From positions 86,360 through 150,359 of the forward strand of contig JBBRQF010000004.1 of NCBI GenBank assembly GCA_038226715.1: a stretch of 64,000 bases of DNA. Reading direction: 5' to 3'. A model generated the notes under the pieces. That model did not search any database and was not told the DNA's origin. It worked only from the letters and a program-made list of their open reading frames with translations. Source of the DNA: Chitinophagales bacterium (GTDB lineage: Bacteria > Bacteroidota > Bacteroidia > Chitinophagales > Chitinophagaceae). The position numbers were made by a program, and so were the translations under genes. This document shows positions 44,347 to 48,444 of this stretch, piece after piece. Each line of letters starts with the position of its first letter. Position 1 is the first letter of the stretch.

Positions 44347-45240
44347 GTGATCAAAAGCATTTTAACCGCAGTTGTTATTTCGGCTCTTATTTTTTCCTGC
44401 AACAGCGGGGAAGATAAAACTTTTACAAAAAATGAAAGACGGGTTACCGAAGGCGATTCAAAAGGGAGTAATGCTAACCTGTTGTACCTGGATACGGCCG
44501 AAAATATTTATAATATCCTTTGCCAGGACTGGGTTTTAAAAGAAGATGCCGAAGGACTGGAAGGTATGAATGAAAGTTCGAAGTTTGAGATCCCCTACCG
44601 GAGTTTTTATTTTTCAACGAAAGGGACTTTTGTGAAGAACCCGAGAAATACTTTTGACTACGGTAACTGGATGTATGATGATGCCGCTAAAACAATAACC
44701 CTAAATAATACAATTGATAAAACGAAGGATATTTACAAGATAGCAAGGGTTACATCGGGTGAATTGACATTGGTGAATGCAGGCGTAAAAAGTGCTACCA
44801 ATTTAACCTTTATTTCATCAGAAAAGCGTTATAAAAATCCTGATGATGAGCCTTATTTTTTAGAGAATAACCGCTGGCGTATAAAACCAAATGCCAAAGA
44901 ATCAGACGCCGCCATTCAGCAGCGGCTGAAAGAAAATATCCATTTCTTTATTTTGTTTTATAGAAGCGCACTTGCAAAAGATGATAAGACGGTTTCTTTC
45001 TGGGGCCTGCCTTCCTGCTTTAAATGGTATGGCGGCGGTATCTTTTTAAAGAAAGAAAACGAGCTTAAAGAAAACTGGATAAGCTGTTTTTACAATAAAG
45101 ACCAGGCCATGCAGGCATATGCTCTTGCAGATAAATTATTAAGTCAGAAATATAATTGGCCCACGGGAGAATCAAACTGGCTGAAGTTAAACCTGGCTGT
45201 GGCCGAACTGATGTATAAAAAGATTGATGAGATACATTAA
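44347..45240 (+). CDS. Hypothetical lipoprotein (lipocalin-like N-terminal part)
   Basis: GTG start, lipobox LIFSC; LCQDWV...GNW pattern; fold assignment is tentative. Confidence 0.65.
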   Translation: MIKSILTAVVISALIFSCNSGEDKTFTKNERRVTEGDSKGSNANLLYLDTAENIYNILCQDWVLKEDAEGLEGMNESSKFEIPYRSFYFSTKGTFVKNPRNTFDYGNWMYDDAAKTITLNNTIDKTKDIYKIARVTSGELTLVNAGVKSATNLTFISSEKRYKNPDDEPYFLENNRWRIKPNAKESDAAIQQRLKENIHFFILFYRSALAKDDKTVSFWGLPSCFKWYGGGIFLKKENELKENWISCFYNKDQAMQAYALADKLLSQKYNWPTGESNWLKLNLAVAELMYKKIDEIH

Positions 45241-45273
45241 CCTCACCCCAACCCCTCTCCCAAGGAGAGGGGC
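45241..45273. repeat. REP-like CCTCACCCCAACCCTCTCC-CAA-GGAGAGGG hairpin
   Basis: CCCTCTCC/GGAGAGGG stem directly after stop codon; looser inverted relative at 17743-17781. Confidence 0.7.
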
Positions 45274-45340: not shown

Positions 45341-45359
45341 ATTGCAACGCAGTTGTGAT
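45341..45359. promoter_or_regulatory. Imperfect palindrome ATTGCAAC-GCA-GTTGTGAT, candidate metalloregulator operator
   Basis: 8-3-8 dyad (6/8 pairs) about 40 nt upstream of the -7 box. Confidence 0.4.
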
Positions 45360-45399
45360 AAAACTTCAGGCATAAGTTAGTGGCGGATTTTAAAACCAG

Positions 45400-45407
45400 T
45401 ATTTTTG
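45400..45407 (+). promoter_or_regulatory. -7 promoter box (TATTTTTG) 4 nt before GTG
   Basis: TATTTTTG-CAAT-GTG. Confidence 0.6.
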
Positions 45408-45411
45408 CAAT

Positions 45412-45729
45412 GTGAAAATAATACTGTTCATATTAAGTGTATACCTGTTGGTTTTGCCAGGCATGGCTTGTGTAGAAAAGGATAACTGTTCGGATCCGTT
45501 ACAAAGTTCAGTAACAGCAACCAATGGCCATGCACAACATGAAGACGATGGCTGTGGTAATTTTTGTACTTGTTCTTGCTGTGTTCATATTGTCTCTGTA
45601 AATTTTCAACCTGCTTTACTGTTAATTGATAAAGCTGCAGTTAAAAGCAGGCAGTTTTCTTTTTATCATAATATTTCACTCCCTTCCAACTACTTTGGAA
45701 ATATCTGGCAACCGCCAAAGATGGTTTAG
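45412..45729 (+). CDS. DUF6660-like Cys/His-rich small protein preceding a TonB receptor
   Basis: Hydrophobic N-terminus, HAQHEDDGCGNFCTCSCC, C-terminal IWQPPK. Confidence 0.8.
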   Translation: MKIILFILSVYLLVLPGMACVEKDNCSDPLQSSVTATNGHAQHEDDGCGNFCTCSCCVHIVSVNFQPALLLIDKAAVKSRQFSFYHNISLPSNYFGNIWQPPKMV

Positions 45730-45772
45730 TTATGTAAACAATATTAATTGATCATCTTAAAAAATAATTTTA

Positions 45773-47953
45773 ATGCAAAAAATAATTACGTTGCTTTTGG
45801 CAACCTTAATGGTATATAATGCAACCGCACAAAATAGTTTTAGAGCGATAATAAAAGACAGCAAAACCGGGCAGCCTTTAACGGGAGCAACGGTGGTTTT
45901 ACAACATGCGGAGAAAGGCACTGCAGCCGATAGTACTGCATTTGTTGAATTAAATAATATCCCCAACGGAAAGCAGCGCATTACATTCAGCTTTGCGGGT
46001 TATGAAGCGGTATATAAAGAATTTGTTTTTCCATTGGCAGCTAAAAATGCCGTTATCATTTTGTTGACAGCGGTTGAGGAAGATATGGACGAAGTGATCA
46101 TACAAAGCACCCGTACCAGTCGTACCATTAATAACACGCCAACCCGTGTTGAAACCATTGATGGCGAAGAACTGGATGAAAAAAATAATATGCGGCCGGC
46201 CAACGTATCCATGCTGCTGCACGAAAGTACGGGCCTGCAGGTGCAGCAAACATCCGCCACCAGCGGTAATGCCAGCATACGGGTACAAGGACTGGATGGA
46301 AAATACACCCAGCTTTTAAAAGATGGTTATCCCAATTACGGAAATTTTACCAGCGGGCTGAGTATACTTGAAATTCCGCCACTGGATCTTAAACAGGTGG
46401 AAGTTATCAAGGGGCCAGCTTCAACTTTGTATGGTGGCGGCGCCATTGCAGGCGTGGTGAATTTTATTTCAAAAATGCCAGGCGAAAAGATGGAAGCAGA
46501 TCTTTTATTGAATCAATCGCATATTGGTCAAACAAATATAGGAACCTACCTGTCGCAAAAGAAAGGAAAGTTTGGGTATAGTTTTTTGGGACTTGTAAAT
46601 TTTCAGAAAGCTTATGATGTAGATAAAGATGATTTTTCGGAAATTCCGAAGAGTAATAATTTTACCATCAACCCCAGGTTGTTTTTTTATCCTGTTGAAT
46701 CCGTTAGTATCATGCTTGGCAACAGCTATACCCAGGGTAAAAATACAGGCGGTGATATGGAAGTGATTAAAGGAAGAACAAGTGTAGCGCATACTTATTC
46801 TGAAATAAATAAAACGAAAAGAAATACGACTACGCTTGAGATCGATAAAAAAATGAAAGCAGGAAAATCAGTAAAGCTGAAACAAAGCCTTGGATTTTTT
46901 GACAGGGAAATACAAATACCCGGCTATGATTTCGGAGGCGTGAATACCAACAGTTTCACCGACCTGTCGATGTTGTTTGTAAAACATAAGCATACGTTTA
47001 TTGGCGGGTTGAATATCGTGGTTGATAAATTTAAACAGGATAGTACCGGCGTTTTAAATGCGCAAACATTTACCGGTGGCATTTACCTGCAGGATACCTG
47101 GGATATAACAAACAGGGTAAAATTGGAAACCGGTTTAAGAGTAGACCACATGCGTTTTAAAAACAACAACTATAAAAAAAATCAAAGCTTTATTTTACCC
47201 AGGGTTTCAGCACTTTTTAAAATTTCGAATAAGTTCAGTTCCCGGATAGGAGGAGGTTTGGGCTATAAAACTCCAACGGTATTTACTGAAGAAACGGAAA
47301 CCTTGCAATACCGCAATTTGAAGGCATTAAACAATGTTGAGTCTGAAAGAAGTGTTGGCGGTACTGCAGATGTAAATTTCAAAACAAAAATTACGGGAGA
47401 TCTTTCTTTCAGTATCAACCAAATGTTCTTTTATACAAACATTAATAAGCCATTGGTATTGAGTTCGGATGCTTTTGGGAAGTACAGTTTTGCCAATGCT
47501 TCAAAATCCATTAGCAGCAGTGGATTTGAGACCAATCTTAAATTAATTTACAAGGAAGACCTGAAATTATTTGTTGGTTATACCTACACCTATGCAAAGG
47601 CCGGTTATTTGCCAGGCAATCAGTTTTTACGCCTGCTGCCAAATAATAAATTGAACCTCACGCTGATGTATGAGAAAGAAGATAATTTTAAATTGGGCCT
47701 GGAAGGATATTTAACAGGCAACCAGTATCTCAACAACGGAAGCAGCACGCCCTCATTTTGGGAGTTTGGTTTTATGGCACAAAAGACATTTAAAAAAGTA
47801 TCGCTGTTCATCAATTTTGAGAACTTCACCGATCAGCGGCAGAGCAAATACAAAACGGTGGTAAACCCGCCACATAGCAATCCGTCATTTGATGATATCT
47901 GGAATCATACGGAGGGATTTGTAGTGAATGGAGGAGTAAAAATTAAATTGTAA
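45773..47953 (+). CDS. TonB-dependent receptor, probable metal uptake
   Basis: Signal peptide, carboxypeptidase-regulatory-like domain, plug IRVQGLDGKYTQLLKDG and VEVIKGPASTLYGGGAIAGVVN; barrel. Confidence 0.9.
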   Translation: MQKIITLLLATLMVYNATAQNSFRAIIKDSKTGQPLTGATVVLQHAEKGTAADSTAFVELNNIPNGKQRITFSFAGYEAVYKEFVFPLAAKNAVIILLTAVEEDMDEVIIQSTRTSRTINNTPTRVETIDGEELDEKNNMRPANVSMLLHESTGLQVQQTSATSGNASIRVQGLDGKYTQLLKDGYPNYGNFTSGLSILEIPPLDLKQVEVIKGPASTLYGGGAIAGVVNFISKMPGEKMEADLLLNQSHIGQTNIGTYLSQKKGKFGYSFLGLVNFQKAYDVDKDDFSEIPKSNNFTINPRLFFYPVESVSIMLGNSYTQGKNTGGDMEVIKGRTSVAHTYSEINKTKRNTTTLEIDKKMKAGKSVKLKQSLGFFDREIQIPGYDFGGVNTNSFTDLSMLFVKHKHTFIGGLNIVVDKFKQDSTGVLNAQTFTGGIYLQDTWDITNRVKLETGLRVDHMRFKNNNYKKNQSFILPRVSALFKISNKFSSRIGGGLGYKTPTVFTEETETLQYRNLKALNNVESERSVGGTADVNFKTKITGDLSFSINQMFFYTNINKPLVLSSDAFGKYSFANASKSISSSGFETNLKLIYKEDLKLFVGYTYTYAKAGYLPGNQFLRLLPNNKLNLTLMYEKEDNFKLGLEGYLTGNQYLNNGSSTPSFWEFGFMAQKTFKKVSLFINFENFTDQRQSKYKTVVNPPHSNPSFDDIWNHTEGFVVNGGVKIKL

Positions 47954-48114: not shown

Positions 48115-48444
48115 ATGGGATTTGATCAGTATCATGAGCCACCGGAAGAACTTTCCGCAACCACCAGGACTTTTGCACGTATGGTTACCTCTTTAATAGA
48201 AGAAGCAGAAGCAATAGGCTGGTATGAACAAAGAATATCAGTAGAGAAAGATAAACAGGCCAAAGCTATTATGGAAAATGCTCAGGAAGAAGAATTTAAA
48301 CATTTTGGAATGGACCTGGAATTTTTACTTCGCAAAAAACCAATATGGAGAGCAACTTTGCAAGCCATTCTTTTCACAAAAGGCGATATTGTTGCATTAG
48401 GAAAAAAGGGCGAAGAAAAAGCGGAGAAAGCGGAGAAAAAATAA
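48115..48444 (+). CDS. Encapsulated-ferritin (EncFtn)-type ferritin-like protein
   Basis: HEPPEEL, SLIEEAEAIGWYEQR and EEEFKHFGMDLEFL match the recalled EncFtn pattern HEP..L, EELEAVDWYDQR, EEKEHAAMTLEWL. Confidence 0.85.
   Translation: MGFDQYHEPPEELSATTRTFARMVTSLIEEAEAIGWYEQRISVEKDKQAKAIMENAQEEEFKHFGMDLEFLLRKKPIWRATLQAILFTKGDIVALGKKGEEKAEKAEKK

Follow-up and report, generated by a model that had tools for sequence, protein, structure and literature searches.

The window analysed here is a stretch of 64,000 nucleotides from a Chitinophagales bacterium (assembly GCA_038226715.1, contig JBBRQF010000004.1, positions 86,360 to 150,359 of the forward strand), and all positions below are counted from its first letter unless another contig is named. 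Our subject is a small gene of the DUF6660 protein family that precedes a gene for a TonB-dependent receptor. The combination of a membrane anchor, a cysteine cluster and a double proline next to the stop codon makes this gene a candidate leader, whose nascent peptide would sense metal and control the gene behind it. The main features of the locus are the following.

45412-45729, + strand: leader open reading frame (ORF) of the DUF6660 family, 105 aa, with a GTG start and a TAG stop
45532-45588, + strand: codons of the metal-ligand cluster, residues 41-59, a His/Asp/Cys cluster (HAQHEDDGCGNFCTCSCCVH)
45685-45717, + strand: codons of the candidate arrest motif, residues 92-102, SNYFGNIWQPP
45718-45758, + strand: predicted RNA hairpin, 5' arm 45718-45731 and 3' arm 45746-45758, 13 pairs with one bulge
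45773-47953, + strand: TonB-dependent receptor, the cargo gene, 726 aa, with the Pfam domains CarbopepD_reg_2 (CarboxypepD_reg-like), Plug and TonB_dep_Rec_b-barrel

A preliminary description of this DNA had drawn attention to a 105-aa ORF with a hydrophobic N terminus, a cluster of metal ligands and IWQPPK close to the stop codon. The ORF is real and its translation is exactly the one quoted there. The end it had been given, 45773, is the first base of the receptor gene and not the end of the small ORF (45729), and the receptor, recognizable by its Plug and beta-barrel domains, does begin 43 nt downstream on the same strand (ATG 45773), as had been claimed. The leader start was placed at GTG 45412 because the open frame has no other in-frame start codon upstream. 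The peptide begins with MKIILFILSVYLLVLPGMAC; its residues 1-20 form a hydrophobic anchor that ends in Cys20, and the succession of Lys2, 17 hydrophobic residues and an acidic stretch gives the N-in/C-out charge pattern. Residues 41-57 read HAQHEDDGCGNFCTCSCC, and the cluster, C48-GNF-C52-T-C54-S-C56-C57-V-H59, contains a CxxxC motif (C48-C52). The C terminus is GNIWQPPKMV followed by TAG, so that the codons of Pro101 and Pro102 (45712-45717) are separated from the stop by K, M and V; C48, the first Cys of the cluster, is placed 53 residues ahead of Pro101.

The kinship with DUF6660, which had been put forward as a likeness, is now established by a Pfam match (PF20365, E 3.7e-9) whose 37.4 bits pass the gathering score of 27, leader residues 1-103 aligning to positions 1-101 of the 102 in the model. 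All hallmarks of the leader family are present in the window ORF, namely a length of about 100-110 aa, a helix ending in Cys, the cluster CxxxCxCxCC and Q-P-P 2-4 residues before the stop. A PDB sequence search returned no solved-structure relative of the leader at E < 0.1, and PADLOC detected nothing. AlphaFold2, supplied with 27 sequences, gave a mean pLDDT of 52 and a pTM of 0.23, with helix 2-18 as the sole predicted element. The absence of a predicted fold beyond the anchor helix fits a nascent-chain sensor and equally an apo form of a metal-cluster peptide.

The reach of the family was assessed in 401 evenly drawn Bacteroidota genomes searched with the Pfam DUF6660 model. DUF6660 was present in 68 of them (17%), belonging to 43 of 179 genera, and the 73 sampled places, together with the two copies of the window's own genome, gave the 74 usable genes that underlie the counts below. 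A profile search of 1.84 billion representative proteins retrieved 2,327 DUF6660 clusters at E <= 0.001, and the window leader has 70 close homologues (E 1e-20 to 1e-44), all from Ferruginibacter/Chitinophagaceae-type sources. A literature search turned up no paper naming this family. In a diverse alignment of 26 sequences, all of which match Pfam DUF6660, M1, C20, C48, C52, C54, Q100, P101 and P102 are invariant and C56 and C57 are kept in at least 90% of the members, while the linker that joins the Cys cluster to the tail shows no sequence conservation.

The preliminary description had singled out W-Q-P-P, the Cys cluster and the distance to the stop as features to compare among homologues. 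The cluster and the distances are kept, and so is the proline pair; the tryptophan is not invariant, being replaced by L or F in some members. Pro-Pro occurs in 74 of 74 genes and is followed by 2-4 residues in 72 of them, as it is in 198 of 214 representatives and close homologues. Of 71 sampled genes, 67 have the first cluster Cys 49-55 residues ahead of the first Pro, and so do 208 of the 214 representatives and close homologues; the last cluster Cys stands 40-46 residues before Pro-Pro. The tail can be written as F/L-x-S-D/N-F/V/Y-Y/F-G-S/N-I-W-Q-P-P-K/Q/R-I/L/V-x-stop, with P-P conserved at 100%, Q at 82-94%, W at 82-99% and I at 71-92%.

Because all synonymous codons are in use at Q and at both prolines among the 74 genes, selection at Q-P-P acts on the peptide and not on the RNA, and the same variation rules out an RNA motif in place of a peptide motif at W-Q-P-P. 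Codon choice at the prolines shows one side feature: CCG stands at the first tail Pro (window 45712-45714) in 28 of 74 genes, against 21% of the Pro codons in neighbouring genes, and at the second in merely 4 of 74. In the window's clade, the G-G-C of TGG-CAR is able to pair with the G-C-C of CCG-CC.

At all 74 loci, DUF6660 is the first gene of its unit and lies on the strand of its cargo. The TonB-dependent receptor, which the preliminary description had named as the possible target of control, proved to be the lesser partner. A full-length orthologue of the window's receptor, from a single orthogroup, is the cargo in 14 of the 74 units, whereas 57 (77%) carry a resistance-nodulation-division (RND) pump of the CusA/CzcA family (TIGR00914, 1177.8 bits). 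The majority of the pumps carry a fused outer-membrane-factor domain and have a membrane-fusion protein encoded behind them. The fourth membrane helix of 54 out of 55 pumps contains DFGx3DG[A/S]x3[V/I]E, which is reportedly the mark of divalent-cation CzcA-type pumps and not of the Cu(I)/Ag(I) pump CusA (Nies 2003). At the other three loci, a further small ORF (a tandem DUF6660 or an HMA-domain protein) comes before the pump or a metal-handling gene. Spacers between leader and cargo range from -1 to 304 nt and are commonly of about 40-120 nt.

The wider neighbourhoods point to metal transport as well, with genes for P-type ATPases, MerC, HMA proteins, cation diffusion facilitator (CDF) exporters and Fur-family proteins; at the loci seen, the heavy-metal efflux operons headed by DUF6660 usually have no two-component system beside them. 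The 13 sampled receptor orthologues outside the window match at E 1e-151 to 0 with 38-70% identity. Two of the 14 receptor-type units continue, 4-5 nt past the receptor, with a CDF exporter that has an HMA domain, and one continues with a Fur-family gene at a distance of 2 nt.

The distribution of receptor cargo on the family tree requires 7 changes, of which at least 5 are forced by well-supported branches, and pump-type and receptor-type leaders appear as supported sisters. The same holds close to the window: among 26 Ferruginibacter/Chitinophagaceae relatives whose leaders are 60-67% identical to that of the window, the receptor follows in most and the pump in L109, L116, L117 and L120. Since near-identical leaders precede either cargo, even at one and the same locus in sister genomes, and at least 5 switches took place between the two, the conserved tail cannot serve to dock the cargo protein. 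Judged from these comparisons of gene order and phylogeny, the leader is a portable module.

The same data bear on the idea that the leader product is a lipoprotein, or else gives rise to a Cys-rich metal-binding peptide that is secreted and then imported through the receptor. The window ORF has an A at -1, Cys20 and then acidic residues, the preliminary description had pointed to G-M-A-C as a possible lipobox, and a small Cys-rich peptide does adjoin a receptor here. However, G-M-A-C fits a lipobox at -1 only, and in most members Pro precedes the Cys (x-x-P-C, against a lipobox of [LVI][ASTVI][GAS]C), and we therefore reject a lipoprotein at the level of the family. Genes for peptide modification or export were found in none of the 74 neighbourhoods, and most members stand before efflux pumps, not receptors. 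We consider both forms of this idea highly improbable.

Upstream of the leader, two further features concern the control of the unit.

45342-45361, strand undefined: near-palindrome TTGCAAC-N3 (gca)-GTTGTGATAA, about 51-70 nt upstream of the predicted transcript start
45400-45407, + strand: Bacteroidota -7 promoter box TATTTTTG (consensus TAnnTTTG), ending 4 nt before the GTG

Because the -7 box lies 4 nt ahead of the GTG, the mRNA of leader and receptor is predicted to start at the GTG itself, that is, to be leaderless. Of the 74 genes, 44 have a -7-like box whose end lies 4-6 nt ahead of the start codon when a loose pattern is used, and 29 when the strict TAnnTTTG is required. In Flavobacterium johnsoniae, the G of the -7 box lies at -5, transcription begins 4-5 nt past the box and the leader is no longer than 10 nt in 13% of messages (PMC6847099); in F. 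psychrophilum, 5.5% of messages are leaderless, which makes this a minority class. A heuristic assigned GTG as the start codon to 31 of the 74 genes, ATG to 31 and TTG to 12; several of the TTG assignments probably lie too far upstream. The equal numbers of A and G as first base agree with transcription from the start codon itself.

The near-palindrome recurs at the same position in nearly all of 24 Ferruginibacter/Chitinophagaceae relatives, in receptor-type and pump-type units alike, and the other DUF6660 copy of the window's genome is preceded by a related TTGCAACcgcATTGTTAT. The near-palindrome is probably a transcription-factor site. A genome-wide regulon was rejected, as the strict pattern has a single match in the genome, against 1.6 expected. 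In some subfamilies (L128-L130 and L035-L037), a 137-aa Fur-family gene adjoins the unit, and at L128 and L129 the DUF6660 promoter shares part of its -33 region with a perfect palindrome, TTGCAAT-tga-ATTGCA.

Between leader and receptor, the RNA is predicted to fold into a hairpin that begins exactly at the Lys codon after Pro-Pro. Its 5' arm spans the codons of K-M-V and the stop together with 2 further nt, and 14 nt separate its 3' end from the receptor ATG. The spacers of the family are more structured than dinucleotide shuffles, with a mean z of -2.9 at 13 receptor-type and -3.2 at 54 pump-type loci. When the codons after Pro-Pro are folded together with the spacer, 7.9 of their bases are paired at receptor-type loci, against 5.1 in shuffles, and 6.9 against 4.9 at pump-type loci; in the window itself, 11 of the 12 tail bases are paired (6.9 in shuffles, p ~0.05).

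A covariance model built on 11 sequences recovered the hairpin in further relatives. On the alignment made with this model, which leans towards the model's own structure, 89.8% of the cells are paired, compared with 82.0 +/- 0.9 in shuffles (0 of 500), and both sides change in 10 of the 13 pairs, compared with 4.6 +/- 1.3; controls with slid partners reached 8-51%. RNAalifold on a MAFFT alignment, in which the 3' arm is misaligned, gave just a 3-pair stem inside the W-Q-P-P codons. We regard the hairpin of the window's clade as supported by covariation. An intrinsic terminator between leader and receptor was ruled out: a scan of 45718-45772 called none, and the stem is A+U-rich and followed by AAAAAATAATTTTA.

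With Pro101 in the P site, the ribosome would span about -12 to +15, including the K-M-V codons, and hence the 5' arm of the hairpin. When such a ribosome is placed at Pro-Pro, the computed cost of opening the downstream start (-15 to +12) falls by 2.4 kcal/mol at receptor loci and by 3.0 kcal/mol at pump loci, whereas the shifts are 0.05 and 0.38 kcal/mol, respectively, with a control ribosome placed 12 codons further upstream. The difference between the Pro-Pro and the mid-ORF footprint is significant for both cargoes (Wilcoxon p 2e-4 for the receptor, with 13 of 13 loci lower, and p 6e-7 for the pump).

Such an arrangement is to be weighed against a plainer role, in which DUF6660 binds metal as a stable periplasmic protein anchored in the membrane (a chaperone, a buffer or an accessory subunit in the manner of CusF or CzcI), control is purely transcriptional and the hairpin reflects ordinary translational coupling or mRNA stability. 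The anchor helix with its N-in/C-out charges and the dense Cys/His cluster would suit such a protein, as would its constant presence in metal-transport units, beside genes for P-type ATPases, HMA proteins, MerC and CDF exporters. A conserved candidate operator upstream and Fur-family genes near some loci would provide the transcriptional control, and 3 of 26 members have weak, below-threshold matches to the NCBIfam model 'CopL family metal-binding regulatory protein' (CopL_fam; best E 0.012). The tail is harder to accommodate: it is invariant before two unrelated types of cargo that were swapped at least five times, and W, Q and P are not metal ligands. First position at 74 of 74 loci, a stop 2-4 codons past Pro-Pro and a hairpin arm right after Pro-Pro would all be unexpected for a protein acting in trans. 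Moreover, a predicted fold is absent, and the 26 members gave no Pfam match to CusF (PF11604) or to an HMA domain at E <= 10. Taken together, a stable protein of this kind, the main rival of an arrest leader, seems to us rather unlikely.

Arrest leaders with a comparable layout have been described in Proteobacteria. CutF of Rhodobacter capsulatus, the DUF2946 protein of cutFOG, is exported co-translationally; copper at its CxxxC causes a stall on the Pro-rich tail, a stem-loop melts and cutO is translated, while the protein itself is undetectable and acts in cis only (PMC9973294; bioRxiv 10.1101/2025.02.05.636593). DUF6660 resembles it as a small exported product of the first gene, with a CxxxC (C48-GNF-C52 in the window), a Pro-rich tail near the stop and a stem-loop between leader and cargo, which in CutF is opened by the stalled ribosome in front of a metal-induced detoxification cargo. 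The two differ in the cluster, which is CxxxCxCxCC plus Cys20 in DUF6660, in the tail (IWQPP against the PPP of CutF) and in the cargo, a multicopper oxidase in one case and a CzcA-type pump or TonB-dependent receptor in the other. The DUF6660 transcript is, in addition, predicted to be leaderless, and because Bacteroidota mRNAs are without Shine-Dalgarno sequences, its hairpin cannot mask one.

CruR (Bp2923) of Bordetella pertussis, another DUF2946 protein, is the leader of a TonB-dependent transporter gene and carries RAPP three residues from its C terminus, at a CxxC-RAPP spacing of 45 +/- 2; copper relieves its arrest and Rho termination follows, in a cruR-bfrG spacer of 162 nt (PMC9426467). 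It shares with DUF6660 the N-terminal export signal, the Pro-Pro motif near the end and a conserved distance from the Cys motif to Pro-Pro (45 +/- 2 in CruR; in DUF6660, 40-46 when counted from the last Cys and 49-55 from the first). It differs by its RAPP, its dependence on Rho and its long spacer, where DUF6660 has WQPP and 43 nt with a hairpin; detectable homology is absent, and the cargo spectrum of DUF6660 argues for induction.

The preliminary description had proposed a CruR analogue. The layout common to CruR and CutF is indeed conserved, but a CruR-style repression of an importer appears less likely than induction by metal. Under such repression, arrest would be the default and would shield the message from Rho or nucleases, so that the receptor is made at metal scarcity, and metal would relieve the arrest and switch the receptor off. 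The mechanism has been published for a DUF2946 leader in front of a TonB-dependent transporter with a Pro-Pro motif three residues from its end, and the window hairpin does not hide the receptor start, which leaves room for a mechanism without masking of the start site. However, 77% of the cargoes are efflux pumps, which are expected to be induced and not repressed by metal, and both cargoes are served by the same type of leader. The CDF exporters with an HMA domain placed 4-5 nt behind the receptor in 2 of 14 units, and the Fur-family gene placed 2 nt behind it in one, also speak against repression, and a 43-nt spacer is short for a Rho loading site when compared with 162 nt. We hold this version to be improbable.

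Other comparisons are instructive for the tail and for the position of the gene. SecM, MifM and VemP are likewise exported nascent chains whose arrest near the end of the ORF opens an RNA structure and raises translation of the next gene; they sense export capacity and not metal, differ in motif and cargo, and have stem-loops by which Shine-Dalgarno sequences are masked. CzcI of Cupriavidus metallidurans and CopL of Xanthomonas are small Cys/His first-gene products before czcCBA or copAB and have been proposed as metal-sensing regulators, but both come from Proteobacteria, not Bacteroidota, and CzcI is without the C-terminal proline motif. For an arrest peptide selected in E. coli, FxxYxIWPPP, stalling by the full motif is reportedly little affected by elongation factor P, EF-P (Tanner 2009; Woolstenhulme 2013; both quoted in PMC7897499 and bioRxiv 10.1101/2024.02.28.582505). 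The peptide has aromatic residues, then I-W, then consecutive prolines, and I-W-(x)-P-P is common to it and the DUF6660 tail. Its aromatics lie 2 and 5 residues before the Ile, against 3-4 in DUF6660, its prolines are three and not two, and DUF6660 has a Gln between W and P-P; moreover, it is an artificial sequence that was tested in E. coli only.

Compared at the level of architecture, DUF6660 shows each feature of the CutF/CruR leaders: anchor, Cys motif, Pro-Pro, spacing and first position. Because the Pfam DUF2946 model does not match, it is an analogue or a very remote relative of DUF2946, and not a demonstrable member. The preliminary description knew of no demonstration of such a Bacteroidota system, and the idea is nonetheless not wholly new. 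In the CutF paper (PMC9973294), an iterative search collected 5,334 'CutF-like' proteins, whose neighbours include ACR_tran, OEP and TonB-like proteins. Bacteroidota contribute about 19% of them, and these probably include DUF6660 members, none of which was studied.

The interpretation that we favour, with a probability of about one in two, is that this ORF represents a Bacteroidota-specific form of the CutF/CruR arrest leaders, acting in cis and sensing metal. The leader would head a leaderless transcript of two, perhaps three, genes that starts at the GTG, and its anchor helix would target the nascent chain to the translocon. With the ribosome at Pro101-Pro102, the Cys cluster would be 43-53 residues behind the catalytic centre, just out of the exit tunnel and entering the periplasm. 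Binding of a thiophilic metal at the cluster, probably of the Zn/Cd/Co type judging from the CzcA-like pumps of the family, would end the pull on the chain, and the IWQPP tail would then hold the ribosome. The held ribosome would cover the K-M-V and stop codons and keep the hairpin open, which would favour translation or survival of the downstream message. When metal is absent, the pause would resolve, termination would occur three codons further on, the hairpin would re-form and receptor expression would be low.

The direction of the response is the weakest step. Near-identical leaders precede either cargo and the pump is the main partner, from which we infer one common logic, most simply induction by excess metal. 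Since, in addition, a ribosome at Pro-Pro opens the downstream start in the computations, we prefer, with low certainty, induction by excess thiophilic divalent metal in the manner of CutF to repression in the manner of CruR.

A broader proposal, to which we give somewhat less than an even chance, is that DUF6660 proteins are Bacteroidota-wide metal-gated arrest leaders on leaderless mRNAs. They would have their own motif (aromatic-x-I-W-Q-P-P-K/Q/R, with the stop 2-4 codons later) and belong to a portable cassette of promoter, leader and hairpin that was repeatedly placed before CzcA-type pumps or a dedicated TonB-dependent receptor. If so, the receptor would belong to the response to metal excess and not to metal starvation, which raises the question of its role under the same control as an efflux pump. 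Nascent-chain metal sensing, as in CutF and CruR, would reach a second major phylum with another arrest motif and another RNA logic, in which the message is leaderless and Shine-Dalgarno masking impossible. It would also give a name to the regulator of the most common type of heavy-metal efflux operon in Bacteroidota, and provide a natural I-W-Q-P-P arrest sequence to set beside the selected FxxYxIWPPP peptide.

Several observations weigh against an arrest leader. The conserved upstream palindrome and the Fur-family neighbours point to transcriptional control, which could be sufficient. Low AlphaFold confidence is equally expected for a metallothionein-like apo-peptide, and the fixed spacing of the motifs is compatible with a small folded metal site too. 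The DUF2946 model (PF11162) does not match the window ORF and matches 1 of the 26 members at E 0.22, and it has no match at E <= 1 in the window's genome. This genome also encodes EF-P, a factor that normally relieves pauses at Pro-Pro. Furthermore, the receptor start of the window is already accessible, at an opening cost of 2.5 kcal/mol without a ribosome and 1.9 with one at Pro-Pro; the effect is small because the A-rich start region is already open, and hairpin melting may, on these computed values, matter little in the window. Finally, induction of a receptor by excess metal has no explanation so far.

The receptor itself is without cysteine. Two methionines of its plug, Met140 and Met147 (NNMRPANVSML), are invariant in all 14 orthologues despite their 38-70% identity, and may, speculatively, form a thioether metal site.

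The genes on either side of the unit, and the second DUF6660 gene of the window's genome, are the following.

44347-45240, + strand: predicted lipoprotein gene upstream of the leader, 297 aa, with a signal that ends in LIFSC
48115-48444, + strand: EncFtn-like (encapsulated-ferritin-like) ferritin gene, Pfam EncFtn-like E 4.4e-24, 161 nt after the receptor
G000:C43:29777-30085 (L003 7769-8086), - strand: second DUF6660 gene, 105 aa, with an ATG start and the C terminus SIWQPPKIS

Whether the EncFtn-like gene belongs to the unit of leader and receptor is uncertain; it follows the receptor in two close relatives only (L106 and L125). It is the sole copy in the genome, and an adjacent encapsulin shell gene is absent. 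The 297-aa predicted lipoprotein has no match in Pfam, NCBIfam or PADLOC. It lies directly upstream of DUF6660, at 60-82% identity, in 21 of the 26 Ferruginibacter/Chitinophagaceae relatives, which are all those whose fetched flank reaches it, and in the window a G+C-rich 9-bp hairpin (45252-45272) follows it.

Behind the second DUF6660 copy, at a distance of 231 nt, comes a CzcA-type pump of 1441 aa with a fused outer-membrane-factor domain, and then a membrane-fusion protein and a P-type ATPase. Tandem arrangements were met at L049 (G095:C9) and L089 (G259:C1): one has two successive DUF6660 genes before a single pump, and in another genome a DUF6660-receptor unit and a DUF6660-pump unit lie about 3 kb apart.

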